Under the pieces are notes generated by a model that did no database searches, had not been told where the DNA came from, and was given only the letters and a program-made list of their open reading frames with translations. Below, piece after piece: positions 23,708 to 41,234 of a stretch of 64,000 nt of DNA (position 1 is its first letter; each line of letters begins with the position of its first letter). The position numbers and the translations under genes were made by a program. Location: IMG/VR virus record IMGVR_UViG_3300029564_000003, positions 69,289-133,288 of that record; one strand, given 5' to 3'. This DNA comes from a virus.

Positions 23708-24061
23708 ATGCAAACCCCTGATAGTTTCACGATGAATGGCCGCGACGCTCTGCGGAAAGTTCTGCGGAAGTTTACCGTCACGGACGAGGGCGCGGACGGC
23801 ATGGGTACGCTGTCAAATCTTTCCACGGAATTTTCATACAATGACAACCCGTGGTATAGCGTTGTCGTGGATGAAACGCGAGACGAGGAAAATTGCTACG
23901 GAATTTTGTACGTCACCCTGTATTACACAAACCCCGAGTGGGGCGTGTGTATCGCGGCGGAAAATGAATGCCGCTATGACGGTATGCACGAGCGCACGGA
24001 GATTTTGGCGCGTGAGCTTGTTGAGTGCGTCGGAATTATCGAAACTCAACTTATGGAATAA
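23708..24061 (+). CDS. hypothetical protein
   Basis: GAGGA RBS; 118 aa. Confidence 0.5.
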   Translation: MQTPDSFTMNGRDALRKVLRKFTVTDEGADGMGTLSNLSTEFSYNDNPWYSVVVDETRDEENCYGILYVTLYYTNPEWGVCIAAENECRYDGMHERTEILARELVECVGIIETQLME

Positions 24062-24167
24062 ACGGTTGTGCGGAAAATGTGGGGGTGGAAAAACCAAACC
24101 ATCCCCAACCCGCGCGGCATGATACAATAGACCCGACGGAAAAACAATCAGTAGGAAGGCTGGAAAA

Positions 24168-24416
24168 ATGACGCTGAAAGCGTTCACGGAAAAATGGATG
24201 GGACACGCTGATAACGGCTATACCGTCAATCGGTGCTTCTCATTCAAGCCTTGGTTCGGAGAATTTGAGGGGCAGACCGTGTACGTGGCTGCGGAATATT
24301 CCCGTGGCTGGTGGGAGGCGGTTCATGCCGAGACGAAAGACGGAAAATCTTTCGAGATGACGTGTACGAACGGAGAATCTAAATCAGACCTAATCAATAT
24401 GATTATGGGTTGCTAG
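24168..24416 (+). CDS. hypothetical protein (82 aa)
   Basis: Preceded by the conserved leader ACGGAAAAACAATCAGTAGGAAGGCTGGAAAAATG. Confidence 0.5.
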   Translation: MTLKAFTEKWMGHADNGYTVNRCFSFKPWFGEFEGQTVYVAAEYSRGWWEAVHAETKDGKSFEMTCTNGESKSDLINMIMGC

Positions 24417-24452
24417 ATTGCACGGAAAAACAACAGTAGGGAGAACGGAAAA

Positions 24453-24677
24453 ATGTATACTGGTTATCTTATGCCCATCGAGCAGGACATTGTCAACTGG
24501 CGCATGGAAAATCCCATGCTTGACACCATCATCACCATCATCATGTTGCTGCTCACCATCGCCGCAATCGTCTACATGCTGTCGCTCATGCGGAAAAATC
24601 AGCTCATTGAGGAGGAGCGTAGGCGCGAAGAGCGTAGGCGTAAGCGCGCGTGGATTCGCGCCAACGGCGGGCTGTAA
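24453..24677 (+). CDS. small membrane protein (one TM helix, basic C-terminus)
   Basis: Hydrophobic stretch LDTIITIIMLLLTIAAIVYMLSL; the same conserved leader as the 24168 gene. Confidence 0.5.
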   Translation: MYTGYLMPIEQDIVNWRMENPMLDTIITIIMLLLTIAAIVYMLSLMRKNQLIEEERRREERRRKRAWIRANGGL

Positions 24678-24750
24678 TAAAGCCAACGGCGGACTTTAGG
24701 CACGGCGGAAAAACACACACACAAACACACACGAGAGAGGACACGGAAAA

Positions 24751-24942
24751 ATGACTGTTAAAGAGTTCGTGGGCGCTCAGTCCACTCTGGAAAACCCCAT
24801 GAAGTTCAAAATCATCGCGCCCAATGTCAACGGCACTGGGGAAAAACTGACGGTGGAGAACTACGCAACGTTCGCGCCCATGGAAATTTTGATGTGGACT
24901 GCAACACCTGGTGGTAGTTATATCAACCTGTTCGTGGGTTAG
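24751..24942 (+). CDS. hypothetical protein (63 aa)
   Basis: ACGGAAAAATG start context. Confidence 0.45.
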   Translation: MTVKEFVGAQSTLENPMKFKIIAPNVNGTGEKLTVENYATFAPMEILMWTATPGGSYINLFVG

Positions 24943-24951
24943 GCGGAAGAT

Positions 24952-25245
24952 ATGAACAACAAGAAAAAGACTTGGCTTGCAATGATTATCATCGGATATA
25001 TCGTTGTCCTCATGGCGTATGTTATCAATGTTGTCGCGGAAAATCAGTACGCTAGTACTGCGGAAAATAAACCTACCGCCGCTGCGGAAAATACATCCGC
25101 TGTCGCGGAAGATTTGCCTACCGCTATCGAGTGCGGTTCGTGCGGTGCGCATGTGTACGAATACTGGTACTGGGAAAATATCAATGACGGTACGCCTGTA
25201 AAGATATGCCGTTACTGCTATGAGAACTGTATAGAGAATCAGTAG
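24952..25245 (+). CDS. membrane-anchored small protein with AEN repeats and C-terminal Cys cluster
   Basis: N-terminal TM helix; repeated AENxx peptides are encoded by repeated GCGGAAAAT DNA motifs. Confidence 0.45.
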   Translation: MNNKKKTWLAMIIIGYIVVLMAYVINVVAENQYASTAENKPTAAAENTSAVAEDLPTAIECGSCGAHVYEYWYWENINDGTPVKICRYCYENCIENQ

Positions 25246-26040
25246 CGGAGAACACCGCCACGGAGAATTAGTTGCCGATACGCTACCGCTTGCCGCTACG
25301 GAAAATCTCTAGCCCTACGCTGTCGCGTGGGGCTTCTGTGCTGTCGCGTTGGCGCGTGGAACTTTTCGCCATCGCGGAAAAATCGGTATGTTAGTACCAT
25401 CAATTTATAAAGTTAACCAACGGTAACAATGTAGTAGTATCAATATGTTAACCAACTATAACTATTAAGTTAACCATAGTTAACAAATGCACCATGCACC
25501 ACGCGACCCATCGTGCCACGTATCCACGCGCCACACGGAAAATCGGCCCAACGGAAAATTAGACGCGCTACAATCGCGCATCAGACGAGCAACACCACGC
25601 GCCACACAACGCCCTGGAACGCCACGGAATAACGCAAGCCTACCCACACACCCGAGACGCACGCAACGGCGGAAATATAGGCATCACAAGCCGTCACGGA
25701 AGATTGTACGTGCTGGCTCTAGCCGCTCACAGTCCATCGGCCACACGGAAAATCATACTGTGATTCAATTGTGTGGAATGTGTGAACCTATTGCAACCAC
25801 AAGGACAATCATATATATTGTAATCAATCGGTAGTCGAGCCGCTGGAAAATCAGAACATATCCAACGGAGGGGCATGGAAGAACCGTTACACTTTCTCTA
25901 CAGTTGTGCCAATATCTGCGGGTATCTCTACGCTTGTGTACCTACCAACGCTCACACGGAAAATATGTAGACCATGTGAATCTCTATATATATCTTGCGC
26001 CGCCACGGAAAATCAGATAGAGTATAACCACTAGATACAA
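25240..26040 (+). repeat. non-coding array dense in ACGGAAAAT(C)-type motifs (~14 copies / 800 bp)
   Basis: No convincing ORF; motif copies at ~25299, 25375, 25537, 25554, 25669, 25697, 25747, 25844, 25957, 26007 plus variants. Confidence 0.7.
25412..25484. repeat. four GTTAAC(C) palindromic repeats within ~75 bp
   Basis: AGTTAACCAACGGTAACAATG ... TGTTAACCAAC ... AGTTAACCATAGTTAACAAATG. Confidence 0.8.
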
Positions 26041-26062
26041 TCATCAACGGATAGGGTGAGCA

Positions 26063-26329
26063 ATGTATAATCCACTGCACAACGCGCACAACCAATACCA
26101 TCCCGCCATCGACCGCGCGGATAAAATCATGTGCCACTATCGCCGCGTTGGCGGAACTGTTGCAAGGCTTGTCGGAAAATATATCTGCACAGGATACAAC
26201 ATGCCCTGTATCGTCATATACAAGCGCGCTGACGGAAAATGTACCATCAAGAAATATGCCAAGGTACCTAAGTGTTATGCCCAAGCAGTAGCCCAAGCGG
26301 AAAATGATACCTACGAGCCATACTATTAG
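26063..26329 (+). CDS. hypothetical Cys-containing protein (88 aa)
   Basis: AGGGTGAG RBS; three ACGGAAAAT motifs lie inside it in different reading frames. Confidence 0.4.
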   Translation: MYNPLHNAHNQYHPAIDRADKIMCHYRRVGGTVARLVGKYICTGYNMPCIVIYKRADGKCTIKKYAKVPKCYAQAVAQAENDTYEPYY

Positions 26330-26452
26330 GTGGTGGCTTGAGTTGTGTGCATATATGTAGGCTTTGTGAATCTGCAAACAACAGTTGCACGGAAAATCAT
26401 TTGGTGTAATATATAAGTCGTAAGCAAGAGTGCAACCACGAGAGGAAACACC

Positions 26453-26662
26453 ATGCGTGAAATCTGGGTCAACCCCAAGAATCTCCCCAGGTTCATCAAT
26501 CTCAATGACATGATTACTGTGTATGACAACGATGATGATGTGTACGCCACCCTCAAGGTGCATTACAGCGGAATCTTTGAGAGCGGCGGGCTAGAGGGGG
26601 CTGAGTGGTTCATTGCCACGAACATTGATACGGGTGAAATCGTGCGTATCGTGATTGAGTAG
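26453..26662 (+). CDS. hypothetical protein (69 aa)
   Basis: GAGAGGAAACACC RBS. Confidence 0.5.
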   Translation: MREIWVNPKNLPRFINLNDMITVYDNDDDVYATLKVHYSGIFESGGLEGAEWFIATNIDTGEIVRIVIE

Positions 26663-26670
26663 AGGGCGCG

Positions 26671-26699
26671 GGTAGGTGAGAGCCTACCCTCTTTTTTTA
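26671..26699 (+). terminator. rho-independent terminator
   Basis: GGGTAGG-TGAGAG-CCTACCC + TCTTTTTTT. Confidence 0.65.
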
Positions 26700-26712
26700 T
26701 AGACGGAATAAA

Positions 26713-26773
26713 GTTAGCTTACGCTAACAATATAAGTTAGCTTTAGCTAACAATAAGTTAGTTAAAGCTAACA
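26713..26773. promoter_or_regulatory. three tandem 16-bp palindromic operator-like sites: GTTAGCTTACGCTAAC / GTTAGCTTTAGCTAAC / GTTAGTTAAAGCTAAC
   Basis: Seen in sequence at 26713-28, 26736-51, 26758-73; each is followed by AATA. Confidence 0.7.
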
Positions 26774-27257
26774 ATAAAATGCTACCAACGAATAACCAAT
26801 TTAATGAACACATTATGAAGATTCAATGAATACACAGGCAACACTTGACAACCACAACGCAATCAGGTTGTCAAGCAATCCGACACGGAAAAATCTAATT
26901 ATGTATTTATGCACAGTTCTCTACACAACTCAACCCAAACAACAAAACCGCAGGTAAACATAGCCGTTAGAATCGCGTGTATGGGAATATACATAACATA
27001 TGCCTATACTGTCTAGGATATGCAAACATCGCCCCAAATAGGCACATCACAGAGACGTACAAGACCATGCGATTGCGGAAGATTCGGACGATATGCACAG
27101 ACAACGAGCCAAACAACAACCATATGTGTAGCAATTGTGATGAAAAACATATACATAGTTTTCATCTTGACACACAGCGACAAAACCACATACAATATAG
27201 CCAACGCAACCAACAAAGGTTGCTAACGCAACCAACCGATAAGAGAGGACATACACC

Positions 27258-27572
27258 ATGCGTGAGTACACCGTAAGCGTTTACGCCATGAAGCACGATG
27301 ATTTGTTCGGCGGGTTTGAGACCGACTACATGAGCAGCCCAATCATTGAGCATAGGTACCCCGACAAGCAGCAAGCCGCCTATGATTTCGCCTTGCTCAA
27401 GGAGTTCCCGCGTGAGTTGTACCACACTGCCAAGGCGTGCGGAGGTAAGCCCGTGGGGTACGTTGCATTTCTTGAGTGTGTGCAAGACGAAGATATCTGC
27501 GGGTATCTTGACGTTGAGACTATCGATAGCACATCGTACACCACGGATGATTACATGCTTGAGCATAACTAG
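27258..27572 (+). CDS. hypothetical protein (104 aa)
   Basis: GAGAGGACATACACC RBS. Confidence 0.5.
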   Translation: MREYTVSVYAMKHDDLFGGFETDYMSSPIIEHRYPDKQQAAYDFALLKEFPRELYHTAKACGGKPVGYVAFLECVQDEDICGYLDVETIDSTSYTTDDYMLEHN

Positions 27573-27581
27573 CAGCAATCA

Positions 27582-27610
27582 GCCTGCCTATATGGTGGGC
27601 TTTTTCTTGC
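27582..27610 (+). terminator. probable rho-independent terminator
   Basis: GCCTGCC/GGTGGGC stem (with G-U pairs) + TTTTTC. Confidence 0.35.
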
Positions 27611-27715
27611 AGCTATAGTTATGAAGATTATATGAATATACAAACCACACTAGACACAAGCGTTATCAGTGTTAATATATAGACACGTTAAGCCACGACC
27701 GAAAGGACGCACACC

Positions 27716-27946
27716 ATGGACAACGTTACCACGCTTTATGTTTCAGAGGAAAATGAGTACGGCGAGATTCAAGACTATGAGATTGCAGTCGATACCGATT
27801 GGCTCAAAAATGAAATCATCGAGGATTTCGGTTTCAGCACTATCGAGGAGTTTATGGACGAGTACACCAGTGATGAATCATCGGAGGTTTATTGTATTGC
27901 TTCTATCACTGGACACCTTGCGAAGATTTTGCCCCCGTTGATTTAA
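27716..27946 (+). CDS. hypothetical acidic protein (76 aa)
   Basis: GAAAGGACGCACACC RBS. Confidence 0.5.
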   Translation: MDNVTTLYVSEENEYGEIQDYEIAVDTDWLKNEIIEDFGFSTIEEFMDEYTSDESSEVYCIASITGHLAKILPPLI

Positions 27947-27990
27947 GATGCATAACGGATTAAGAGTTTATCTCACAGAGAGGAATAATA

Positions 27991-28251
27991 ATGCAGTATT
28001 ACGCCATTGAGTACACCGAGACGCGCACGGCAACCTTCAATGTTCAGGCTGATAGTTATGAGGACGCTTGCGAGCGTTTCGCTAACATGCTTAACAACGA
28101 TGATATCATTTACAATGTACTTGACAATACGGACTTTGTGAACACGGATACTAATTGTCTTGGAAGCATTGGCGACGAGCCAGATGATTGTTGCGATGAC
28201 ACGATTACCGATGATGATTACAAGATGGCTATTGGTATCAAGGAGGATTAA
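27991..28251 (+). CDS. hypothetical acidic protein, paralog A1 (TNCxGxIGD family)
   Basis: Paralogous to 31418..31669 (shared ADSxEEAxER...NTDTNC.G.IGD...DYK.IG pattern). Confidence 0.55.
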   Translation: MQYYAIEYTETRTATFNVQADSYEDACERFANMLNNDDIIYNVLDNTDFVNTDTNCLGSIGDEPDDCCDDTITDDDYKMAIGIKED

Positions 28252-28253
28252 CC

Positions 28254-28493
28254 GTGTGCAAGTGGGCCGTGGTTTGCGTTTGCGCCTACGATAATCAGGT
28301 TTCGAGTGTTGACTTGTTCGATAGTTATGAGGACGCTTCTAAGTTCATGGAAAGCGACGCGGCGGAATCATACGAGGAAATGAAGGAGCACAACGCTAAT
28401 ATTTATATGGAGAATTGCGGGCAATGCGCTGAAATTGTTATCAATGGAAGTACCGATTATTTCTGGAGTATCGAGCCTACTAATATCCATTAA
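28254..28493 (+). CDS. hypothetical protein, paralog B1 (WAVVC...AEIVING family)
   Basis: Paralogous to 31996..32253. Confidence 0.55.
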   Translation: MCKWAVVCVCAYDNQVSSVDLFDSYEDASKFMESDAAESYEEMKEHNANIYMENCGQCAEIVINGSTDYFWSIEPTNIH

Positions 28494-28500
28494 AAGTAAT

Positions 28501-28533
28501 GAGAATGGGCGCGTATAACACGCGCCCTATTTT
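28501..28533 (+). terminator. rho-independent terminator
   Basis: GGGCGCGT-ATAAC-ACGCGCCC + TATTTTT. Confidence 0.7.
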
Positions 28534-28602
28534 TCTTGTCTCATAAAGTTATGAAGAAGTTATGAACTTAACAATCACACTAGACACAACACGGCACAGT
28601 GC

Positions 28603-28690
28603 TATTATATAGTTAATCGGTAGTCGCAGGTTGGCAATACCAACCCAAGGGGCAGATAAGAGCCGTGATTTATTGAGCTACAGTTGTGCG
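28603..28690 (+). repeat. ~90-bp conserved intergenic element, copy 1 (TATTATATAGTTAATCGGTAG...GAGCCGTGATTTAT..AGCTACAGTT)
   Basis: Near-identical copy at 35102..35180; partial copy ~25826..25900. Confidence 0.75.
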
Positions 28691-29038
28691 TATTTGTAAA
28701 ACACATGCACAACATCGAACTAGTGTTCTATCTGACTACATAAGCATAAGCCAATGAGAGCCGATTTAAGGCGTTGTATTTCCGATACTGGACACTTACA
28801 CCACACACGCCACGAACGCCCGAAATATCGCAACGTAAAGCGTTTTAGTACGTTAATCCTGGTATCAGTACGGCATTGATAGAGCGCATATATACGCGAT
28901 TGGCGCAATGGTTCTAAAGATTGGGATATGTGTTGAAGTTGTGAAGATGAAATATCCCGATGAGCAACGCCAAGACATGCGATATAGTGTAGTCACGCCG
29001 AGCGGATAGGGCGCGGCACGATTGAAAAGAGGATATTA

Positions 29039-29206
29039 TGTGGAGCAACTTCGATGACGATGATTTCATCATCATTTTCAGCAACGGCGAGTATCTTTAC
29101 GAGGGTCTTGTAAAGGACATGCCCGAGAATTTCAAGCATGATTCATACGATTGGTACGCGCTTGGAAGGACGGAGCGTGCCGATTACCTGTTGATTGAGT
29201 TCTAAC
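29039..29206 (+). CDS. hypothetical protein (55 aa)
   Basis: AAGAGGA RBS; followed by a terminator. Confidence 0.4.
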
Positions 29207-29592: not shown

Positions 29593-29594
29593 AT

Positions 29595-31690: not shown

Positions 31691-31948
31691 ATGGACACTG
31701 GAAACGAGCATACGCACCATGCGGAGCATGAGTACCCGCAACTCACAGGGCACACCGATGATACCACTCTTGCTTTCATCGACACATCCGACACCTACGG
31801 GTTGCCGATGGGCATGGTTCTCAAGCTGTGGACGTGTATGGGCAGACCGCGCAACATCGACACGGTAAGGCAAGAGGTCGAACGTCTGTTCGATGAGTTC
31901 GGGACGGAAGAATTGCTGTACGGCCTTGCTTTGTCATGGCTGGACTGA
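31691..31948 (+). CDS. hypothetical His-rich protein (85 aa)
   Basis: GGTAGGTAACGGAT RBS-like; N-terminal HTHHAEHE. Confidence 0.45.
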   Translation: MDTGNEHTHHAEHEYPQLTGHTDDTTLAFIDTSDTYGLPMGMVLKLWTCMGRPRNIDTVRQEVERLFDEFGTEELLYGLALSWLD

Positions 31949-31995
31949 CGGAAAAATAATCGACAATCTTGTGGAAAATCTGTGGAGGTATTGAC

Positions 31996-32253
31996 ATGTG
32001 GGCTGTTGTGTGTATGGGCATTTACGATTACACGATTTTAAGCGTCAACCTATTTGACGATTTCGACAAGGCAACGCGGTTCGTTCGCAACGATGTGGAA
32101 GAAAGCTACCGTGAAATGAGTGAATGTAACGACAATATCAGTATTGAAGCAGATTATTCGGCTGGGTATGCGGAAATCGTTATCAACGGAGAGGTTAAAT
32201 ATATTTGGGGTACCGACTTTGTTGGTGATGTGTGTGTGGATTGTGAAGATTAG
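31996..32253 (+). CDS. hypothetical protein, paralog B2
   Basis: TGGAGGTATTGAC RBS; paralog of 28254..28493. Confidence 0.55.
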   Translation: MWAVVCMGIYDYTILSVNLFDDFDKATRFVRNDVEESYREMSECNDNISIEADYSAGYAEIVINGEVKYIWGTDFVGDVCVDCED

Positions 32254-32348
32254 CAAGGTCGGAAAATCTCACGCTCCATGGTCGGAAAATCTGATATAGT
32301 ATAACCAACGAGAAGCAACAGGACGCCGAGCGGAAGTAGGTTGTTACC

Positions 32349-32642
32349 ATGCGATACTACGCTTTTCACCACACTTACGGAATCAACACCGCCGACACGC
32401 GCGGAAATATCATCGGTAGGCTGTATGTTTTCGACACAAGGCAGGATGCCGCACGTTGGGTTTCCGAAGATGTGTGGGACGGAAATTATCACCGCTCGAC
32501 TATCAGCTCAAAAGACGCGCGTAAGTACCTGGAAGATATGTGGTTTGATTTCGGATTGCGCAATAAAGCGGACGCAAGGTATATGAGCATGGGCAGTCTT
32601 GTGGATAGATACACGGATTGGGCGCGTGAGGAATATATGTAG
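32349..32642 (+). CDS. hypothetical protein (97 aa)
   Basis: Complete ORF with ATG start; Trp/Tyr-rich. Confidence 0.45.
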   Translation: MRYYAFHHTYGINTADTRGNIIGRLYVFDTRQDAARWVSEDVWDGNYHRSTISSKDARKYLEDMWFDFGLRNKADARYMSMGSLVDRYTDWAREEYM

Positions 32643-32733
32643 GAACTGTGAATCGGAATATTCCCGATACAAACACAGTCTAGTTTTGATATAGTATAAC
32701 CAAGGTAAAGGAGCCGAGAGGAAGGCGCTGACA

Positions 32734-32949
32734 ATGACGTGGCAAGAGCTGGCAGACTTCATCAACAACGAGATGCCCGAGTGCAACAGGAACCAAACTG
32801 CGAATGTCTGGGATGCGAGTTGTGACGAACCCACTGGCGGCAACTGGTATGAGGTTAAGGACATTAGTCCTTATGACGCTGACGAGCGGCCTAACGAGCA
32901 CAACTTCTATTCCATCGACATTAACACCGAGCTTGGAGCGTACAATTAG
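32734..32949 (+). CDS. hypothetical protein (71 aa)
   Basis: AAAGGAGCCGAGAGGAAGG RBS. Confidence 0.5.
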   Translation: MTWQELADFINNEMPECNRNQTANVWDASCDEPTGGNWYEVKDISPYDADERPNEHNFYSIDINTELGAYN

Positions 32950-33063
32950 AAACAAACTTTCAACGGAAGGAACAACTATGAAGAACGTTGTTGTTAATAG
33001 CGAGGACATTATTAACGCCCTGGTGTCTATCGGAGATTGTTTTGATAAGTAGGAAGGCTTACA

Positions 33064-33654
33064 ATGGGCTACATAATCGCTACCGAAAATAATCAGTATT
33101 TGCAGTTGCTCGATGTTAATTTCGGAAAGTATGGTCTTACGGATGATGTATGCAAGGCGAAAAGATGGGGCACCAGCAAGCAAGCCCACAGGTCGCTAAA
33201 GACAATCAAGAATCAGTTTAAGGGCATGTGCATATCGTTCTGTGTCAAGAACGAGGATGCCATGCACGTCACGCGAGAGCCTATTGATAACATAGAGCCG
33301 CTGTCTTTTGATATTTCCGATACAGCGGATAACCTACTTGCCATATCGAGACAGGCGGAAAATTACAAGCGGTATCTTGATGAATGTTTGAGTACCATAG
33401 ACATGGAGATTGTAGACATTGAACATGCGGCAGAGTTCTACGAGCTTAATGCTTCACAAGGTTACAAGATATACAAGATGTTGCACGATGCCAGAGTTAA
33501 GCGGCGTATCATCAAAAACAACATGGAGATTGTCAAGAAGTTTTTAGGTACAACGTTGCAGAGCGGGAGCATCGAGAGCTTGAAAGATTGCATCGACGGC
33601 ATTGATAGCAAGACTTATAATCCGCGCGTAAACAAAGAACTGTTCGGTGTGTAG
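33064..33654 (+). CDS. hypothetical protein (196 aa)
   Basis: GTAGGAAGGCTTACA RBS. Confidence 0.5.
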   Translation: MGYIIATENNQYLQLLDVNFGKYGLTDDVCKAKRWGTSKQAHRSLKTIKNQFKGMCISFCVKNEDAMHVTREPIDNIEPLSFDISDTADNLLAISRQAENYKRYLDECLSTIDMEIVDIEHAAEFYELNASQGYKIYKMLHDARVKRRIIKNNMEIVKKFLGTTLQSGSIESLKDCIDGIDSKTYNPRVNKELFGV

Positions 33655-33737
33655 TAAACGAGCGTTCCGTATGTTGTTTATCAACACACCGATAATTAAG
33701 CCCGTATTTGATAAAGAGGATAACGAGAGGAACGACT

Positions 33738-34316
33738 ATGGACACCACGTATCTGGACGAGCTTGTTAAGCTGAGCGACAGCGCGGATAAAATTGTAGCC
33801 GAGGTGCATAAGGTGAACAAGCATTTGCGTGACGAGTACGAGGACATGGAGGTTGCCGCGCTGGAAAAATTCATCGATGACATGCGCGGGCTTGGTGAGT
33901 ATGCGAAGAAATTTGAGCATTGGGCGTTTTATACTGGTATCACGCTTGATTATCATCGCAATAGCTTTGATTCATATGCAGAACTCATAGTGAGATTCTA
34001 TAAAGACGGAACTTTTGCGTTGAAATCAAACGCATACAGAACTTATCCATATATCTACAACGATAGGTATTCCAATTGCGGAAAAATAATGACAAACTTT
34101 GGAGATACTTATCGCGGAGCGACTAAATGTGTCGATGGGTGGTCTTGGGAAATCAATGAGAGCAAGCGCTTTATCGCGCTCAACGCGGACAAGATTTACA
34201 ATCGCGTGTATGATATGATTTGCGAGCGTCTCGCAGAAGACACCAAGCGGAAGATTGAAGCTGTACGCAAGCAGAACGAGCAGCTTATTAAGGACATTGA
34301 GCGACTGGAAGCCTAA
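33738..34316 (+). CDS. hypothetical protein (192 aa)
   Basis: GAGAGGAACGAC RBS before internal ATG. Confidence 0.5.
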   Translation: MDTTYLDELVKLSDSADKIVAEVHKVNKHLRDEYEDMEVAALEKFIDDMRGLGEYAKKFEHWAFYTGITLDYHRNSFDSYAELIVRFYKDGTFALKSNAYRTYPYIYNDRYSNCGKIMTNFGDTYRGATKCVDGWSWEINESKRFIALNADKIYNRVYDMICERLAEDTKRKIEAVRKQNEQLIKDIERLEA

Positions 34317-34925: not shown

Positions 34926-35101
34926 CGAGTTCGATACGCCCGCTTGTTAATCGTTTCGCCTGTATCTTTTCAGATTTCTGGTGTGCTGTTGCGACTTGCA
35001 GCACACCAGATTTTGCGTTACGCGCAATTGTGTGTGAAATATGGATGCTGAATTATTTCCAATTCTCAGTATGAATGTACGCCGAGTCTGGTATTATATA
35101 G

Positions 35102-35836: not shown

Positions 35837-35941
35837 CCCAATTGTGTGGGTTATATGAATCGCCTATTGTCGGTTAGTTTGTTCGCTTGCTCTGGTAATA
35901 TAAGTGTTGTCAGGGCAAGCGACTAGTGAAAGGTTCAAATC

Positions 35942-36118
35942 ATGTCGCGTGTTTACATCGTAATGTCCGAGCTGAACGGGTACAAGAGGGTCGAGTCCGT
36001 GTACGCGAACGAGGACAATGCTTGGGCGTACCGCAACGAGCTTGCGAACGATTGGCATTACGACCGTCACGACCTGTACGTTGTCGAGTATCACGTAATG
36101 GACATGCCCGTTGGATAG
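35942..36118 (+). CDS. hypothetical protein (58 aa)
   Basis: GAAAGGTTCAAATC RBS; not in the ORF track because it is under 60 aa. Confidence 0.4.
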   Translation: MSRVYIVMSELNGYKRVESVYANEDNAWAYRNELANDWHYDRHDLYVVEYHVMDMPVG

Positions 36119-36194
36119 ACCGAGTTGAAGGCGTGGGGCGGCGATTAACCTGCCCCACATGATAGAACCGTCACGATAAACAAGGAGAATAACA

Positions 36195-36827
36195 ATGCGT
36201 ACCATCGCCATCACCGCGAACGTATACAAGTATAACGAACTGAATACCAAAGCGCAGGAGCGCGTAATGGAGTGGTATGTTGCAAACTACCGCACGCCCG
36301 AGCTGTTCAGCGAGATGCTTGCCGATGATTTGGAAATAGTGTTCGGCGAGAACGATTTGGACGTAGAGTATTCGCTCAGCAATTCCCAGGGCGATGGTCT
36401 GAATGTCTACGGCTCTATCTCGTTGACGCAGATTCTCGATGAAGCAGAGCGGTGCAGTTGGATTACGTACTTCGATGCTTTCCGCAACTGTTTTACAGCA
36501 GACGAGAAGGCGCTTATCAGGAGATACGCTGAGGATTACGACACTGTGAACATCCCGCGTAACACAAGCAATATGTATCATTATTGCCATGCAGACCACA
36601 TCGACTATGTATATGATTACATGACCATGACGAACGCTGGTGAGGACGACGATACTGATTTGCTGAATCGAGTCAATGCCGCATTGATTTCCTTGTTTTC
36701 GGAGCTATGTGCATCTTATAAGGAGTGGGGATATGAATTCCTCTATGATGTTGACGATGATACACTATCAGAGGTGTGCGAGGCGAACGGCTGGGAGTTC
36801 ACCGAGGATGGTGAGTTGTACGTGTGA
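36195..36827 (+). CDS. acidic protein, possible ArdA-like antirestriction protein
   Basis: N-terminal ITANVYKYNELNTKAQERVMEWY resembles the ArdA N-terminal YIANLGKYNEGEL pattern; strongly acidic composition; weak. Confidence 0.3.
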   Translation: MRTIAITANVYKYNELNTKAQERVMEWYVANYRTPELFSEMLADDLEIVFGENDLDVEYSLSNSQGDGLNVYGSISLTQILDEAERCSWITYFDAFRNCFTADEKALIRRYAEDYDTVNIPRNTSNMYHYCHADHIDYVYDYMTMTNAGEDDDTDLLNRVNAALISLFSELCASYKEWGYEFLYDVDDDTLSEVCEANGWEFTEDGELYV

Positions 36828-36938
36828 TTGAGTTGCGCCGTATGGCATAATTTCTTACCGAGCGGTAAGTTTTGTATCATACGGTGCATTTCTTCCCGAA
36901 CGGTAATAAATCTTAGACGATAACAGAAAGGCGAAACA

Positions 36939-37241
36939 ATGTCTCACGAGCTGTACATTTCCGACTGGTGCTGCAAGGCTGGTTACACCCCCGAGAACGA
37001 TTACGACCCGCGCTATTACGATGCTGGCGGTAGCCTGTCGGTGGATGACTTGTGTTACATCGGCGAGGAATTCGGCTATGATTCGTTCTCTATTCCGATT
37101 GACACCGTGCTGTACACCGAGAATATCAACGTCATGCGCTACATGCAGGACGATGCGCTAATCGCGCCAATGTGGTTCGATGTGTGCGGCGATGATGTCA
37201 ACACCGTTGACGAACTGCATAAATCTGGCTGGACGTGGTAG
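36939..37241 (+). CDS. hypothetical protein (100 aa)
   Basis: AGAAAGGCGAAACA RBS. Confidence 0.5.
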   Translation: MSHELYISDWCCKAGYTPENDYDPRYYDAGGSLSVDDLCYIGEEFGYDSFSIPIDTVLYTENINVMRYMQDDALIAPMWFDVCGDDVNTVDELHKSGWTW

Positions 37242-37317
37242 CCGTTGACGCTTGACATATTCCGCACATGCGCTTAACATGGAGGTATGAATAATAACAT
37301 GGGGGAGCTGTGCGGAT

Positions 37318-37533
37318 ATGTCGAGCATCAAAAGCGAGATTGGAAAGGTCGATAGAACACCGTTCAACACGACGATAAGAACCGACCTATTGAATGACTT
37401 CAAACGATACTCAAAGGACACTGGCGTTCCTATGAACGTGCTTGTAGAGCTATTCATGGCTGGTGTCGTAGACGGAAAATTCGATATCGCCATAGTCAAA
37501 GGCGGGGTTCATCTGGATTTTCAGGAAGAATGA
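37318..37533 (+). CDS. putative ribbon-helix-helix (CopG/Arc-like) regulator
   Basis: N-terminal beta-strand segment RTPFNTTIRTDLL followed by two predicted helices; 71 aa. Confidence 0.4.
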   Translation: MSSIKSEIGKVDRTPFNTTIRTDLLNDFKRYSKDTGVPMNVLVELFMAGVVDGKFDIAIVKGGVHLDFQEE

Positions 37534-37596
37534 CAACTGTGTTGATTTCGTGTAGCCCAAAATGACTGTATAAAACATGTGATATATGGGTATGAG

Positions 37597-37788
37597 ATGC
37601 ACGTTGCGGAAAATCTGAACGAAGGGATTACCATGTACGAGGACGATGTTAAGGACGAGTTGCGGAAAATCGCGGAAAGCATGGTCGATGCGTCCGATGG
37701 CCTGACGGTTGCCGATGCGATGGATGCGATTCGTTATTATCTCGATGTGATTCTCAATGACATTCAGCGAGAGTTGGAGGACAAGTAA
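37597..37788 (+). CDS. hypothetical acidic protein
   Basis: Internal start of ORF 37579..37788; an alternative ATG at 37633 has a better RBS. Confidence 0.4.
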   Translation: MHVAENLNEGITMYEDDVKDELRKIAESMVDASDGLTVADAMDAIRYYLDVILNDIQRELEDK

Positions 37789-38039
37789 TGCCAAGGTGCG
37801 CACATGAGCGCGTGTGTACCGAGTACATGCGCCGCTACGGAAAAATCCTATCGAAGCATTGCCCGAATCCGAGTCGATGCCCGTTCTATCAGAAGGAGAA
37901 CACCGTGACAATCAAGGAGTTCATGGATGATTTCATGGACGGCATGGCGGATGCGTTCTGTGTCAATGACAACGGCGTTACCAAGGTGAAGCGCAAGACC
38001 GTTCCCAGGGACATGGTCGATGATTGCTACGGTGTGTGA
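37788..38039 (+). CDS. hypothetical Cys-rich protein (83 aa)
   Basis: CxxxC...CPxxxRC pattern. Confidence 0.45.
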   Translation: MPRCAHERVCTEYMRRYGKILSKHCPNPSRCPFYQKENTVTIKEFMDDFMDGMADAFCVNDNGVTKVKRKTVPRDMVDDCYGV

Positions 38040-38434
38040 TTGATGTGGAGACATTTGACTGGGACGATGGATTCTATTGTGAATACGATGTAAACCAAGA
38101 GGGGCGATTTGAATCTTCGTTCAATGATAAGCTCTTCGCGACGCTGTTCACGACACTGGTCGTAGCTACATTGCTGTTCGTTATCGTCAGTCTTGGACTG
38201 TCTAGCTGTGCGGACAAACATGAAGCGCAGGAAGCGACAAATGATACGGAACTTGCAACCATTTATGATACGGCAAAAGAAGATGATGGTTTCTTGTATG
38301 AAGGTCGCGGACTGTGTTCTGAGTGCGGCAGGGAGGGCTACACGATTGACGATAACATCGTGTGCCGTAACGAGGATTGCCCTAATTACGGCCTTGCAGC
38401 ACCAGCAATCATGACGGGGACGGAAAATCAATAG
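38024..38434 (+). CDS. membrane/lipoprotein-like protein with C-terminal zinc ribbon
   Basis: TM segment FATLFTTLVVATLLFVIVSLGLSSC (lipobox-like LSSC); CSECG...CRNEDC; start codon uncertain (TTG/GTG). Confidence 0.35.
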   Translation: MLRCVIDVETFDWDDGFYCEYDVNQEGRFESSFNDKLFATLFTTLVVATLLFVIVSLGLSSCADKHEAQEATNDTELATIYDTAKEDDGFLYEGRGLCSECGREGYTIDDNIVCRNEDCPNYGLAAPAIMTGTENQ

Positions 38435-38457
38435 ACGATTCTGATTGAGAGGTTCAC

Positions 38458-38952
38458 ATGCTTACCGAAGACGAGGTTGTGCAGAGCGTGCGCAATGATA
38501 TCATAAGGGCTAGCATCCTGCTTGGCAAGGCTCTTGAATCCATGAGCAAGCCGAATAAGGATTATAAGAAGTGCTGGGGTTATCTCAATACAGCGAACCA
38601 TCATTCGCGCAACGCGGAAAATATGTGCTTCGATAGAGCGAATTGGGTGAGAGGTGAAATAGTGGTTGACATCTATAAAGTGGTAGACGATAACATTGCC
38701 GACAAGTGGTTCAAGGCTACGTTTGTCGGAGAGAAAACATATCTCAAAGGACTTACAGTTGTGAACGGTCGAGAGTACCATATCAAATTCATGGGTAAGT
38801 TCGGTGATAAGGGATGGCTTTGGTTTGTGATTCGTGACCCGAACACCAACGCTGTATATAAGCTGATGCTCGGATACAAGGAGGCCCAATGCCCGTATAG
38901 CAGCATCGGTACATTCCTGTCGAACTGGAAGATTGCCGATTGGGTTGATTGA
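38458..38952 (+). CDS. hypothetical protein (164 aa)
   Basis: GAGAGGTTCAC RBS. Confidence 0.5.
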   Translation: MLTEDEVVQSVRNDIIRASILLGKALESMSKPNKDYKKCWGYLNTANHHSRNAENMCFDRANWVRGEIVVDIYKVVDDNIADKWFKATFVGEKTYLKGLTVVNGREYHIKFMGKFGDKGWLWFVIRDPNTNAVYKLMLGYKEAQCPYSSIGTFLSNWKIADWVD

Positions 38953-39009
38953 TATTTAGCAACATACATATAGTTACGATAACTAGACGGAAAATCTAAG
39001 GAGTTACAA

Positions 39010-39183
39010 TGGGTGCAATCAAGAAGCTGTTCGGGCGCAAGAGCAAGACGTGTCACAACATCTCGCTTGAGGACGGAAAATTTACCTGCTCGCGCTGCAA
39101 TGGCAGTGTCGAGTTCAAGGGTCGGGATGATTTGGCAATCGCCTACTGCCCGATGTGCGGCAAGCCCGTGGTGAAGGGGTAGA
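39010..39183 (+). CDS. small zinc-ribbon protein (57 aa)
   Basis: AAGGAG RBS; CSRCNG...CPMCG. Confidence 0.45.
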
Positions 39184-39186
39184 GGT

Positions 39187-39375
39187 ATGGAAATTAATAT
39201 CGGTGCGCCTGAAGCGATATACTTATCCATACTCATTATAGATGCTATTTTTAGAGTTTACCGAGATGCTGTAGAATCAACCAATAGAATCGACCTGGCG
39301 GCGAGCATCGTAGCTACCGTCCTGTCTGTTTGTATCGATACTGCTATTCTTATCTGGGGCGGATTCTTCTCGTAG
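39187..39375 (+). CDS. small hydrophobic membrane protein (62 aa)
   Basis: Two hydrophobic segments; GGTAGAGGT RBS. Confidence 0.4.
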   Translation: MEINIGAPEAIYLSILIIDAIFRVYRDAVESTNRIDLAASIVATVLSVCIDTAILIWGGFFS

Positions 39376-39466
39376 AAATATTGTTATTTTATGTATAATA
39401 TATGTTGTTTTATACAAGTACAGTCTGACGGAAAATCTGTGGTAAGATGACGCATGTATTCTGTCT

Positions 39467-40186
39467 GTGCCTATGAGAACGGATGTTGAGATGGGTGTTA
39501 AATCTGCGAATTTCAGCTATGGCGCTATGAGCCTTGTTGGCCTGTATCATACGGGCAATGTGTCCATCAAGATGACGACATACGTCGAGGGTGAATCGAC
39601 AAGGGGCTTGCCAATCACAATCTATATGGCGAAGGCAGCGGACATGGAAAATATGTATAACAATTCCGATGTATGGGTCAACCTGACAAATGGAATAGAA
39701 GCTGTCAGAGACCTTGACAGCTATGATTGTACTTATAATTTCTGTCGCTTTCAATCAACCAGCTTCGAGCAGCGCGACTGGGGAGCGGCAATTGACTCAA
39801 TGCCCGATGACATGCTTGTGAATCTGGCTGTCGGAAAACCTCAGACGATTATCGACTTCGGTGCCAACAAGAACTGTCCTCGTGCGATGCGTCAAGGCAT
39901 CCCGATTGCAGCTGATATTCTAGCACGTGCTTGGGATATCGAGACAGATGATAAGCTGCGTATCTTCAGCCGAGACGGAAAAAATATCATCACGGTAGAC
40001 GATGATACGCGAATGGATATACTGCGCAGCATGACCAAGCGTCAGCGCAGTAGGCTGAATTATTTCAAGAAGTATGTTTGCACCGACAAGATTGAGTTCA
40101 ATTTGTTGTGCGGAAAAACCACGCACGATAACGACTACGATTTCCATGTCGATATGCTGCATAACTGTTCCAAGTGTATCGAGTAG
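39467..40186 (+). CDS. hypothetical protein (239 aa)
   Basis: GTG start in the track; alternative ATGs at 39473 and 39491. Confidence 0.4.
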   Translation: MPMRTDVEMGVKSANFSYGAMSLVGLYHTGNVSIKMTTYVEGESTRGLPITIYMAKAADMENMYNNSDVWVNLTNGIEAVRDLDSYDCTYNFCRFQSTSFEQRDWGAAIDSMPDDMLVNLAVGKPQTIIDFGANKNCPRAMRQGIPIAADILARAWDIETDDKLRIFSRDGKNIITVDDDTRMDILRSMTKRQRSRLNYFKKYVCTDKIEFNLLCGKTTHDNDYDFHVDMLHNCSKCIE

Positions 40187-40227
40187 ACATATCATAGGTC
40201 AGACGGAGAATTTATCAATCGTGGAGG

Positions 40228-40262
40228 ATTCGTGTATACGGGTTCTCCACGATTTATTTTGA
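40228..40262 (+). terminator. rho-independent terminator
   Basis: ATCGTGGAG...CTCCACGAT stem + TTTATTTT. Confidence 0.55.
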
Positions 40263-40337
40263 GCAAACTACTTGCCAACCATGTGCTAACCATGTTACTA
40301 TCTACTTGTAAGGAGAGAACGATAGGAGGTTTTCGAT

Positions 40338-41132
40338 ATGGGAAATGCGGCATACGATTTCAATCGGAATAACTATTACAAGAAGAACAACATCATCGAC
40401 TTCGACTTTCGAGCGAAGCAGGTCGTGGCACCGAAGGCGGAAGCGCCGACTGGCGAGTACGACAATCGAGCGGGAAAGAAGACCGAGGTTTACGCAATCC
40501 GCACGGATGAAGAGGTCAAGGCTATGATTGACGTGCTGGACAAGCATATCGAGGAGGCCAACACGCCTACGCTCAAGCGTGTTGCGGCCAGGAATAAGAT
40601 GCTGTTCATCGTGGGAATCAACGTTGGTCTGCGCGCCAGCGACTTGCGCCTGTTGACTTGGGATTTCTTTTTTAAACAGATGCCAGATGGAAAATTTGAG
40701 TTCCGCGATGGATATAGTTTGCGACCCAAGAAGACGGCGCGATATCAGAAGCATGTCAATCTCCATTTCAATTCCGCCGTTAAGAAGGTTATCAGCTGGT
40801 ATGTTGAGCAGTATCCTATTGACGATATCAAGGGTTATGTTTTCCGTTCACGTCAGCTTGATAAGCCAATCACTGTAAATGCCATGTGCCGAGTTGTGAA
40901 AGAAACGGGTGAAGAAGCTGGAATCAAACAGCCGCTTGGCAGTCATTCGATGCGCAAGACTCTTGGATATAGGATGTATCATGACGCAGATAACAAGACG
41001 GAAGCCCTTATTATTCTTCAGTCAATCTATGGGCATAGCGCACCAAGTACAACGCTCAAGTACATTGGCATATCAAATGATGAAATCGAGAGTGCGTTCG
41101 GTGATTTGAACATCGGTATTGATTATATTTAG
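40338..41132 (+). CDS. int: tyrosine recombinase / phage integrase (XerC/D-like, 264 aa)
   Basis: R-box GLRASDL, HxxR (HSMRKT) and catalytic Tyr context LKYIG; TAGGAGGTT RBS. Confidence 0.75.
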   Translation: MGNAAYDFNRNNYYKKNNIIDFDFRAKQVVAPKAEAPTGEYDNRAGKKTEVYAIRTDEEVKAMIDVLDKHIEEANTPTLKRVAARNKMLFIVGINVGLRASDLRLLTWDFFFKQMPDGKFEFRDGYSLRPKKTARYQKHVNLHFNSAVKKVISWYVEQYPIDDIKGYVFRSRQLDKPITVNAMCRVVKETGEEAGIKQPLGSHSMRKTLGYRMYHDADNKTEALIILQSIYGHSAPSTTLKYIGISNDEIESAFGDLNIGIDYI

Positions 41133-41234
41133 GGCGGAAATTTATGAATACACGGGGTTGATATATTCTACTCCGTGTATTATCATAAATATATATGCAA
41201 TACACAATAATCAGAATGGAAAGGTCGAGATTAT

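Follow-up and report, generated by a model that had tools for sequence, protein, structure and literature searches.

Why does a single short word, RCGGAAAAWY, recur so densely in the early genes of this phage, in one orientation, and what might read it? The window, by which we mean the whole analysed stretch of 64,000 nucleotides, derives from a phage that resembles SPbeta and encodes a YonO RNA polymerase; it is part of a 133-kb human-gut contig.

Abundance and strand bias of the word

The early-gene word is 9-10 nt long, with a run of 4 or 5 A residues. Information is confined to about 10 nt, the flanks being uninformative beyond -1 and +7/+8. We write its complement as ATTTTCCG and its repeated form in RNA as (ACGGAAAAU)n. 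For counting, the core CGGAAAA[AT] (CGGAAAAW) was used. The window contains 47 matches to this core, 42 on the (+) strand and 5 on the (-) strand, whereas dinucleotide shuffles of both strands (n = 100) gave 5.2 ± 2.05 matches and never more than 11. Between 23901 and 40200 on the (+) strand, 41 copies (spanning 23958-40118) were observed, compared to 0.86 ± 0.90 in the shuffles (maximum 4), an approximately 48-fold excess. For 23901-26900 alone, 25 copies compared to 0.30 expected result in an approximately 83-fold excess. A preliminary description of this DNA had estimated about 45 exact early copies and at least a 100-fold excess. The abundance is real, but the exact number is 41, and an excess of that size is obtained only against a uniform null. 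In a ranking against an order-3 Markov background, CGGAAAA is the most over-represented 7-mer of the window and CGGAAAAT the most over-represented 8-mer, and CGGAAAATC and ACGGAAAAT lead the list of 9-mers. Both the excess and the strand bias are confirmed. The one-off variants that had also been noticed are present and likewise strand-specific, with (+):(-) counts of 5:0 for TGGAAAAT, 5:0 for CGGAAGAT and 4:0 for CGGAGAAT.

No (-) copy was found between 23.6 and 41.2 kb. The (-) copies of the window are located at 3046, 12836, 44212, 55610 and 58302; the earlier claim of a single reverse copy (around 44203) therefore has to be corrected to five, although the early block is indeed free of them. 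Similarly, the reported near-absence from the late arm in both orientations holds for the (+) strand (no copy), but two copies are present on the (-) strand. An isolated (+) copy at 44486..44493 is probably due to chance.

Selection at the nucleotide level and conservation in relatives

Within genes, 21 copies were observed, compared to 4.5 ± 1.8 after shuffling of synonymous codons and 1.3 after shuffling of the codon order. Since the excess persists when the protein sequence is kept, selection acts on nucleotides and not on the protein, as had been proposed, and A-richness or codon usage does not account for the counts. Consistent with this, the word is used in all reading frames (VGKY/DGKC/AEND) and forces AEN repeats in the gene 24952-25245, both as originally described. 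In this gene, four (+) copies at 25037..25113 (AEN/AED repeats) are spaced by 24, 24 and 21 nt. Between the repeat units only the motif is conserved, so that they are not a plain tandem duplication, and Tandem Repeats Finder did not call the array.

Comparison with related phages, all of them from Clostridia MAGs, showed that the motif and its strand polarity are conserved. Relatives whose YonO is 62-66% identical, and which have essentially no early genes in common, carry 19-37 copies at a distance of 3-8 kb from YonO; orientation and map position are those found in the window. In closer relatives, the ratio of sense to antisense copies is 33:0 and 24:0. That phages with unrelated early genes retain the word implies that something reads it. 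Some relatives carry kb-long (approximately 1.75 kb), almost ORF-free arrays with up to 1 copy per 50 bp; AT-rich, palindrome-rich DNA is interleaved in these arrays. In three aligned arrays (approximately 79% pairwise identity), 88% of the motif columns are invariant compared to 70% elsewhere, and relatives about 90% identical to the window have kept the copies while the flanks diverged. Judged by these alignments, the word is under purifying selection. SPbeta itself shows no enrichment of CGGAAAA. The array of one relative, L008, has a promoter-like site within it and a terminator following it, the pattern expected of a long non-coding transcript, and such arrays are likely transcribed. On the other hand, six copies in L008 follow a strong terminator but precede the next promoter-like site, and their transcription is doubtful.

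Confinement to three putative promoter-to-terminator blocks

Within the window, copies of the word are confined to three putative transcription units on the (+) strand, whose promoters and terminators were assigned by consensus matches. Each block starts with a TTGACA or TTGTCA -35 element and ends with a strong hairpin followed by a T-run. Block 1 (23958..26893) carries 25 exact copies and about eight one-off variants (CGGAGAAT, CGGAAGAT, TGGAAAAT). It is opened by a promoter-like TTGACA-18-TACAAT (11/12 matches; 23648..23677), and the intrinsic-terminator-like hairpin at its end lies at 26670..26689. Block 2 (31949..34086) carries five exact copies, with variants at 31905, 31972 and 34248, between a promoter-like TTGTCA-18-AATAAT (31931..31960), whose spacer includes the copy at 31949, and a terminator-like hairpin of 13 pairs (34977..35010). 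Block 3 (37473..40118) comprises 11 exact copies and variants at 39645 and 40204, with TTGACA-17-TAACAT (37252..37280) at its start and a hairpin of 17 pairs (40217..40254) at its end. Together, the blocks hold 40 of the 41 early-arm copies; for the copies at 26886 and 31949, the position makes transcription doubtful. The 3.8 kb upstream of the first promoter-like site contain no copy, the replication genes are motif-free, and 0-1 copies were counted in the interleaved units, in the late arm and among the genes of the same orientation at 41-64 kb. That the late arm and these 41-64 kb genes lack the word weakens the suggestion that it is a polar orienting sequence.

Inside the blocks, the density is 2.2 per kb in coding sequence (all frames) and 5.8 per kb in non-coding sequence, a 2.6-fold non-coding enrichment. 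With one-off variants counted, 28 of 56 sites are in coding sequence. Distances to the next start codon are uniformly distributed, without a preferred value, and the non-coding sites are not concentrated at ribosome-binding sites. Neither a fixed -10 or -35 partner of the word nor helical phasing or a significant period was found, the spacings ranging from 10 to >100 nt. Upstream of 12 genes in these blocks, a copy lies at a distance of no more than about 130 nt. The predicted unpaired probability of the motif (0.64) is close to that with shuffled flanks (0.61) and that of words of the same composition (0.60). Special RNA accessibility beyond composition is thus not predicted, nor is presentation in hairpin loops.

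In three successive leaders of block 1, the ribosome-binding site is bracketed by two copies. The conserved leader blocks reported for the first two are present as described: ACGGAAAAACAATCAGTAGGAAGGCTGGAAAAATG (24136..24170) precedes the gene 24168-24416, and ACGGAAAAACAACAGTAGGGAGAACGGAAAAATG (24422..24455), with copies 23 nt apart, precedes the gene 24453-24677. In the leader of the gene 24751-24942 (24706..24753), the copies are separated by a CA-rich spacer and the second one adjoins the ATG. The arrangement CGGAAAA(A)TG occurs in 20 of 145 sites. Further downstream, an ORF-free, C/A-rich stretch of 817 nt (25246..26062) carries 10 copies. Independent gene calls on the source contig also leave it non-coding, and it is the counterpart of the kb-long arrays of the relatives.

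A possible reading coupled to transcription

The reading that we favour, tentatively, is that RCGGAAAAWY is a dense, sense-only recognition word on a subset of early units, read as a single strand and coupled to transcription. We infer that the blocks are real transcripts, that RNA is the level of reading, and what the effect of reading might be. For the RNA-site role suggested earlier, the location of 40 of 41 copies in the three blocks favours a reading linked to transcription, but the analogy to RegB that came with it is loose. The reader could be a sequence-specific factor that the lineage has conserved or that the host provides. Early RNA would be its most likely substrate, bound by an RNA-binding protein or cleaved by an endoribonuclease; the displaced non-template DNA strand in the elongating polymerase seems a less likely one. 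Dose rather than position may matter, so that more copies per transcript would result in a stronger setting of translation, stability or read-through. Copy pairs around ribosome-binding sites might directly control translation of the first genes, and the almost ORF-free arrays (817 nt here, approximately 1.75 kb in relatives) could serve as a sink or timer for the factor.

A candidate reader did not emerge from the window. Pfam and PHROG scans of about 60 window proteins (the window covers half of the 133-kb genome) revealed no RNA-binding or RNase domain and no RegB-like protein. No early protein is common to all motif-positive phages, and DUF8033, the sole recurrent neighbour, is also found in a motif-free phage. 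No Rfam family matched.

A more specific proposal, which we consider possible but rather doubtful, is that immediate-early transcripts carry a 9-nt RNA 'zip code' together with kb-long non-coding decoy arrays, with one phage or host factor setting timing, translation or decay. If true, the zip code would define a phage-wide regulon, controlled after transcription and equipped with its own sponge. To our knowledge, such a regulon has not been described for phages or Firmicutes, and our literature search found no published 8-9-nt RNA tag this dense in phage early mRNAs.

DNA-level explanations

Among the alternatives, a Chi-like polar signal, which was not among the roles suggested earlier, fares best, although we regard it as unlikely. 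The word or its complement ATTTTCCG would be a hotspot for a host AddAB/RecBCD-type helicase-nuclease or another translocase. Stacked near the pac-proximal end, it would halt degradation of an entering or unpackaged end, aid recombinational circularisation and limit CRISPR spacer capture. Such a role would fit a top-ranked octamer with extreme one-strand bias (42:5 in the window, 41:0 in the early blocks) that occurs in coding and non-coding sequence without positional preference and clusters beside the region that holds pac in SPbeta. In SPbeta, the B. subtilis Chi, AGCGG, favours the same strand by 27:2 regardless of gene orientation (late arm 6:0, early arm 21:2). In the window, AGCGG is only mildly biased, in the same direction in both arms (71:42), a hint that the host Chi may be another sequence, and no genome-wide polar k-mer was found. 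Known Chi sequences are G-rich, which the word is not. Moreover, the first 4-5 kb beside the putative pac region are motif-free, and the word, at 8 per kb here and up to 1 per 50 bp over 1.75 kb in relatives, is 5-15 times denser than Chi in the Chi-rich phages described. The closest published precedent (PMC12315714) is provided by the lambdoid phage LLS, with 23 Chi sites, 20 of them in one orientation and clustered terminally, and by Pseudomonas phage MD8, whose 32 sites all share one orientation. Missing from the late arm and from 41-64 kb, the word differs from Chi in SPbeta or LLS. Chi enrichment was found in phages lacking recombination modules of their own (PMC12315714), whereas this phage encodes an AAA_24-domain protein (placed as SPbeta's Sak4-like yorG), a PD-(D/E)XK nuclease and a YonJ-like exonuclease. 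A Chi site should be set by the DNA end or replication, independently of transcription units, but the word starts and stops at promoter-like and terminator-like boundaries.

Slightly less probable still is an array of double-stranded-DNA sites for a monomeric phage DNA-binding protein, such as an early shut-off or roadblock factor, an origin or centromere nucleoprotein complex, or an SroF/MrpR-like asymmetric repressor. Repressors of the SPbeta family offer a precedent, as they bind asymmetric A-tract boxes as monomers (bioRxiv 10.1101/2025.11.27.690993). In addition, promoter-like elements are overlapped by several copies of the word: CGGAAAATCTATTGACA lies directly upstream of a -35 element, TTGACACACGGAAAAATATTGAGTATATA and TTGCACGGAAAATC..TAATAT lie within promoter-like spacers, and the GGA/GAA words TGTGGAGAAA (11-nt period) and TTATGAAGATTATATGAAT directly after terminators and upstream of promoters resemble DNA-level control. 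The AT-rich, palindrome-rich DNA in the relatives' arrays points in the same direction. Against this, half of the sites are intragenic and spread over 16 kb, without regular or helical spacing or a positional tie to promoters. A double-stranded-DNA binder would not require the orientation lock, and 41 sense to 0 antisense copies over 16 kb are hard to reconcile with dimeric binders in particular. We rejected an SPBRE-type SroF/MrpR operator: about 10 nt are informative compared to the 15-26 bp read by SroF and MrpR, there are more than 40 sites, and the integrase-like protein of the window (40338-41132) has intact catalytic residues (R, HxxR, H and Y) and no relationship to YopR or YopP. We also rejected iterons of an origin and repeats of a centromere on the basis of the aperiodic spacing (10 to >100 nt) and the 16-kb spread including genes. 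A cluster of DnaA boxes (TTATCCACA, reverse complement TGTGGATAA) was also rejected, as ACGGAAAA has three mismatches over 8-9 positions, the TGTG end among them. Sites resembling a DnaA box show no enrichment in the window (26 compared to 17 ± 4); only T-variant words in the 11-nt arrays of relatives resemble DnaA boxes.

It is improbable that the word acts as a stand-alone, -10-like promoter element of the GAAAAT type (A at -11, T at -7), recognised by a phage polymerase or, with the help of a specificity factor from the phage, by host RNA polymerase, analogous to the 8-bp T4 late promoter. The co-orientation with genes, the non-coding enrichment, the 12 block genes with a copy upstream and the conserved modules leading from motif to ribosome-binding site would agree with it, as would a GGAAAA located 17 nt upstream of TAnATA elements in the relative L031, with an operator in the spacer. 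But half of the copies are intragenic, array copies are only 11-25 nt apart, and copies abutting an ATG could not drive that gene. The A-run is variable, no initiation region is conserved, and the window yielded no sigma-like protein. In SPbeta, transcription by YonO is limited to the late operon (PMC5467207), and the late arm has no (+) copy here. A T4-late- or T7-style promoter was rejected, given the uniform start-codon placement, the 28 of 56 sites in coding sequence and the uninformative flanks. Least probable of all are strand-specific (T5-like) nicks or one-strand methylation or hypermodification: the strand specificity would suit them and possible enzymes are encoded in the window (HNH/NUMOD4 endonuclease, 46536-47138; N6_N4 methyltransferase, 62199-62990; FolD-like and nucleoside deoxyribosyltransferase-like enzymes), but there is no tie between the word and any of them, one strand would be shredded if it were nicked every 25-50 bp, and neither role explains the block boundaries and leader architecture.

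Comparison with known systems

If the word is read in RNA, T4 RegB offers a partial parallel. This endoribonuclease targets GGAG in early mRNAs, a 4-nt word that is the Shine-Dalgarno sequence itself. Like the RegB target, the word may be a short sense-strand mark of one temporal class of transcripts, often in leaders near ribosome-binding sites, for class-wide post-transcriptional control. In contrast, the word described here is 9-10 nt long, flanks the ribosome-binding site or sits anywhere, and forms arrays; the window proteins scanned, about 60, include no candidate for a cognate endoribonuclease. In CsrB/RsmZ-type sponge RNAs, GGA words lie tens of nt apart, and in CsrA dual-site leaders two sites bracket the ribosome-binding site. 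Many GGA-containing words on a putative non-coding RNA and leaders with two bracketing sites are reminiscent of this, but the CsrA consensus includes neither the conserved C that precedes GGA nor the AAAA(T) that follows it. A CsrA/Rsm sponge RNA was rejected on account of the unremarkable unpaired probability, the lack of hairpin-loop presentation and the missing Rfam match; we know of no sponge RNA in Firmicutes. Elements of the ops/RfaH type are short oriented words on the non-template strand of selected operons, with one or two per operon in the leader. If read on the non-template strand, the word would resemble them in orientation and operon choice, but here there are 5-25 copies per block, and no NusG paralogue was seen in the window.

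Two systems read at the DNA level are also similar. SPBRE/SroF(MrpR) sites (PMC10516654; bioRxiv 10.1101/2025.11.27.690993) belong to the same phage family, are asymmetric A-tract sites repeated in the early arm and, like the word, might be seen as sites read by a monomer. SPBRE is a 15-26 bp box at about nine intergenic sites, whereas the word has 9-10 nt and more than 40 copies, half of them genic. With the Chi sites of LLS and MD8 (Genome Res 2025, PMC12315714), to which the oriented AGCGG that we observed in SPbeta can be added, the word shares the rank of top octamer, the nearly one-stranded distribution, the regional clustering and the occurrence in genic and intergenic sequence. It differs in being A-rich instead of G-rich, 5-15 times denser, gathered in places into dedicated kb-long non-coding arrays, and confined to three blocks the size of transcription units, with none in the remaining genome.

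Over-representation and strand bias of the word

The strict form of the word, CGGAAAA[AT], occurs 42 times on the plus strand of the window and 5 times on the minus strand, with 5.2 ± 2.05 copies expected for both strands together in dinucleotide shuffles of the whole window. Between 23901 and 40200, 41 plus-strand copies were found versus 0.86 ± 0.90 in dinucleotide shuffles, and the opposite strand of this interval carries none. The density is highest at 23901-26900 (+), with 25 copies versus 0.30 in the same kind of shuffle. A preliminary description had claimed a strand-specific excess of this word; our analysis bears it out, with slightly corrected counts and fold values. The word tops the lists of over-represented 7-, 8- and 9-mers of the window, and its position profile reads R-CGGAAAA-W-Y, outside of which no information was found. 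The one-off variants TGGAAAAT, CGGAGAAT and CGGAAGAT are likewise confined to a single strand.

Dinucleotide, order-3 Markov, synonymous and codon-order shuffles rule out an artefact of composition or codon usage. Duplication of paralogous leaders or a tandem repeat was also rejected, since neighbouring units keep the word alone and Tandem Repeats Finder makes no call. With gene boundaries that match independent predictions for the source contig, and with the main one-off variants included, coding sequence (12.75 kb) and non-coding sequence (4.85 kb) contain 28 sites each. The 21 exact intragenic copies exceed both the 4.5 ± 1.8 obtained by synonymous-codon shuffling and the 1.3 obtained by codon-order shuffling, which indicates that the word shapes the choice of codons as well as that of amino acids (xEN, xGK). 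Further 9-mers over-represented on one strand of the whole window are AGGGCGCGG (7:0) and TTTACCTGC (6:1), and CATCGAC shows a plus-strand bias in each arm (16:3 and 19:11).

Genome organization

The window mirrors the gene order of SPbeta. The 986-aa product of a minus-strand gene at 15828-18788 shares about 40% identity with SPbeta YonO, a single-subunit RNA polymerase. This gene and the HU-like (15301-15642, the yonN position) and YonJ-like (13698-14930) genes of the same strand are arranged in the SPbeta order. At 14930-15300 lies a structured non-coding stretch, in the place of the SPbeta YonO promoter and a non-coding RNA. The late, left arm (0.4-18.8 kb, minus strand) contains the YonJ-like exonuclease, terminase, portal and HU-like genes; a LAGLIDADG endonuclease gene (11542-12267, minus strand) adjoins the terminase gene. 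The early, right arm (19.8-64 kb, plus strand) starts with dozens of small genes without assigned function and continues with tyrosine recombinase, tail fibre and RNA ligase genes, two tRNAs and a replication module encoding an AAA_24 protein, a PD-(D/E)XK nuclease and a DnaB helicase. A Toprim match in this module is weak (E 7e-4, below Pfam's threshold). An HNH/NUMOD4 endonuclease gene is present at 46536-47138 (+), and in one relative (L188) YonO is split by an HNH gene.

Between the arms lies a 68-bp direct repeat, its two copies (19203-19270 and 19394-19461) being 100% identical at a distance of 191 bp. The palindrome formed by each copy, AAAACTTGTCACTTTGA...TCAAAGTGACAAGTTTT, surrounds a promoter-like TTGTCA-17-TAATAT, and more copies of TTCAAAGTGACAAGTTT follow (within 19249-19763). 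The region 19203-19763 is likely a switch and/or pac region; in SPbeta, pac adjoins yonO (SPbeta literature). The genes for tRNA-Leu(UAA) and tRNA-Ile(UAU) (44651-44735 and 44773-44847) are preceded by a 600-nt non-coding stretch with a perfect DnaA box (44411-44419, minus strand) and several AAAGTTCAA repeats (44220-44350), which may be an origin-like region. Genes for a FolD-like methylene-THF dehydrogenase/cyclohydrolase (52295-53212), a nucleoside 2-deoxyribosyltransferase-like protein (53203-53676) and an N6_N4 DNA methyltransferase (62199-62990) suggest, taken together, that nucleotides or DNA may be modified.

Over positions 16453-36662 the window matches an ENA metagenome contig of 133,308 bp at 100% identity, and a second contig of 67.7 kb, labelled human gut metagenome, contains an identical stretch. 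No nucleotide matches to cultured phages were found, nor any match of the early-region DNA to INPHARED phages. Relatives of the YonO gene come from Clostridia MAGs and from IMG/VR contigs (up to 145 kb); the genome relatives are all Clostridia MAGs, with a YonO identity of at most 57%. Exact sequence look-up of YonO and the RNA ligase gave no match that would name a host.

Placement of the copies

The copies are concentrated in three blocks, whose transcription units are predicted from promoter-like and terminator-like sites. Block 1 (23648-26689, 24 strict copies) opens with a promoter-like TTGACA-18-TACAAT and block 2 (31931-35010, 5 copies) with a promoter-like TTGTCA-18-AATAAT; both close with a strong terminator-like hairpin and T-run. 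Block 3 (36870-41200, 11 copies) has a promoter-like TTGACA-17-TAACAT at 37252 and a strong hairpin at 40217-40254, and its copies, spanning 37473 to 40118, lie within this predicted unit (37252-40254). There are 0-1 copies in the interleaved units, which have different upstream elements, and likewise in the late arm, in the 3.8 kb leading up to the first promoter and in the co-oriented genes that fill the rightward 23 kb.

Copies are freely placed inside the blocks. They occur in all three reading frames, and those in non-coding DNA are uniformly distributed relative to the following start codon. Neither a favoured spacing from -10 or -35-like hexamers nor helical periodicity was detected, and predicted RNA accessibility of the word is no higher than that of words of the same composition. 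The leaders of three consecutive genes (24168, 24453 and 24751) each contain two copies bracketing the ribosome-binding site, and CGGAAAA(A)TG is found again in relatives. For some copies transcription is doubtful, namely 26886 and 31949 in the window and six in the relative L008 that a terminator and the following promoter-like site enclose.

Other elements accompany promoters of the early arm. Tandem palindromic operator-like units of 21-23 nt (AAGTTAGC-N4-GCTAACAAT; GTTAACCAAC) lie beside promoters at 26707-26779, 23600-23650 and 25400-25490. Double hexamers of the TTATGAAGATTATATGAAT type (26808, 27614, 28544, 29241, 29623) are found directly 3' of terminators and upstream of the TAGACA-16-TAWTAT promoters of motif-free units; this element also follows terminators in three relatives (L002, L004, L008). 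A conserved promoter-region module consists of ATATGTAG-N4-TGTGAA (25961, 26351, 30176, 32633) followed by the extended -10-like TGATATAGTATAACCA (26015, 30914, 32292, 32687), and a second module, TATTATATAGTTAATCGGTAGYCG, occurs at 25811, 28600 and 35089.

Conservation in related phages

The preliminary description had raised the question whether the word and its polarity are conserved in related phages; both are kept in several of them. In phages whose YonO is 62-66% identical, CGGAAAA is found 19-37 times in the same strand orientation, at a distance of 3-8 kb from the start of YonO, and is often the top k-mer. Two closer relatives show 33:0 and 24:0. The early arms of relatives share few proteins and no detectable DNA similarity with the window. 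In relatives about 90% identical to the window, copies are kept and flanks have diverged; occasionally a copy has been gained or lost, or its first base has switched between C and T. L002, L004 and L008 contain a nearly ORF-free stretch of 2.6 kb, about 79% identical between them (pairwise blastn). When the three are aligned together, 88% of the motif columns show no variation, as against 70% of the remaining columns, and 23 of the 37 motif positions are common to all three.

More distant AT-rich relatives show a weak excess of TGGAAAAT that is confounded by purine-rich coding strands, and SPbeta itself lacks the word. Among the IMG/VR matches listed (at least 120; pattern of three close copies), arrays of at least 30 copies occur in the SPbeta-like clade only. 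The remaining listed matches fall in protein-coding repeats, either of P-x-T-E-N/K in HTH_36 Rep-like proteins or in proteins rich in E/K; they are a different signal, an artefact of the search pattern. In six HTH_36 Rep-like phage sequences (L179, L134, L126, L079, L105, L086), P-x-T-E-N/K is encoded by tandem DNA repeats of 15 nt that share the core ACGGAAAAWCC.

Relatives also carry repeats of their own. AATCGTTAACAAC, an analogue of the operator-like word of the window, occurs 29-51 times in L031 and L009, mostly at a 30-nt period in L031, and sometimes has GGAAAAT 10-12 nt upstream. At about 6550-6970 (minus strand), L008 has some 35 tandem TGTGGAGAAA-like units of 11 nt, flanked by a terminator and a small membrane-protein gene starting CGGAAAAATG; L002 and L004 have an equivalent region. 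DnaA-box-like TGTGGAnAA is strand-biased in the same three phages (10-16:0-2). The upstream 10 kb of L021/L037 and L025 contain 15-30 one-strand copies of 35-40-nt units (CCTGCTGCC-A7-N-ATTTTTAAAAACTTTA; AATTTTTAAAAACTA then TAnnnT), which look like lineage-specific promoter/operator modules of other YonO phage lineages.

Discussion

The absolute orientation lock, the unit-like confinement to blocks and the free placement within them lead us to favour, tentatively, a signal that is read single-stranded, in step with transcription and by dose. Its most economical version would be an RNA tag recognised by a binding protein or nuclease; the non-coding arrays might then serve as a sink for this reader, and the paired leader copies as translational operators. 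No reader was found among roughly 60 window proteins scanned. A DUF8033 protein (23283-23603) adjoins arrays in several relatives and was rejected as reader, since an unrelated DUF8033 phage lacks the motif.

The closest published precedent is a Chi-like polar DNA signal, a reading we regard as unlikely. Lambdoid phages are known with 20-32 terminally clustered Chi sites in one orientation (PMC12315714). The B. subtilis Chi sequence AGCGG is biased to one strand of SPbeta (NC_001884, 56000-105900; 27:2, shuffles 16 and 7.5) alike in the late (6:0) and early (21:2) arms, thus independently of gene orientation. Our word differs from this pattern in that most of the genome lacks it, and in that its copies keep within unit boundaries and are packed 5-15 times more densely. 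The phage also has recombination genes of its own.

We consider an array of duplex-DNA binding sites improbable. Some copies overlap promoter elements, and neighbouring word families are clearly upstream of promoters, but such an array is hard to reconcile with the sites inside genes, the lack of regular spacing and the strand lock of 41:0. Minor possibilities are that the word is a promoter element by itself or a site of nicking or modification.

Other candidates were rejected. A promoter of sigma-A or alternative-sigma type that has a partner element does not fit, as there is no information beyond -1 to +8 and no preferred -10/-35 offset; a YonO late promoter does not fit a late arm without copies, and the SPbeta literature leaves the YonO promoter undefined (PMC5467207). 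A hairpin-loop RNA motif gave no signal above composition, and neither helical phasing nor a cooperative array was detected. CodY, DnaA and other palindromic host regulators are excluded by the 0 reverse copies, the DnaA-box match also being poor. An anti-motif small RNA is not indicated, as the sole intergenic ATTTTCCG (44212) lacks supporting features and Rfam reports two tRNAs only. The integrase-like protein at 40338-41132 has kept its catalytic residues and shows no similarity that would make it a SroF-like repressor; the SPbeta SPBRE/SroF-MrpR operator is a box of 15-26 bp with about 9 sites (PMC10516654; bioRxiv 10.1101/2025.11.27.690993).

Lysis-lysogeny control is studied in SPbeta-like phages as a model, and these phages have many uncultivated gut relatives. 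To our knowledge, the regulation of their long early arm after de-repression is largely undescribed. The word outlasts complete turnover of neighbouring genes and has non-coding stretches as long as 1.75 kb given over to it. Being strongly selected, it offers an experimental handle, as bait for the reader or recoded for function. An RNA tag, if true, would add a new layer of phage temporal control and the first sponge-like RNA in Firmicutes; a Chi-like signal, if true, would define the hotspot of a gut Clostridia host and represent an extreme form of end protection. Either outcome would help gut phage annotation, as gene-centred pipelines are at present blind to such arrays.

Full-text literature matches to the word itself are eukaryotic NFAT papers only, and the SPbeta literature holds nothing like it. 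The word falls in with kinds of element already known, polar over-represented oligomers or class-specific transcript motifs, and there is a real chance that it is a new regulatory device.
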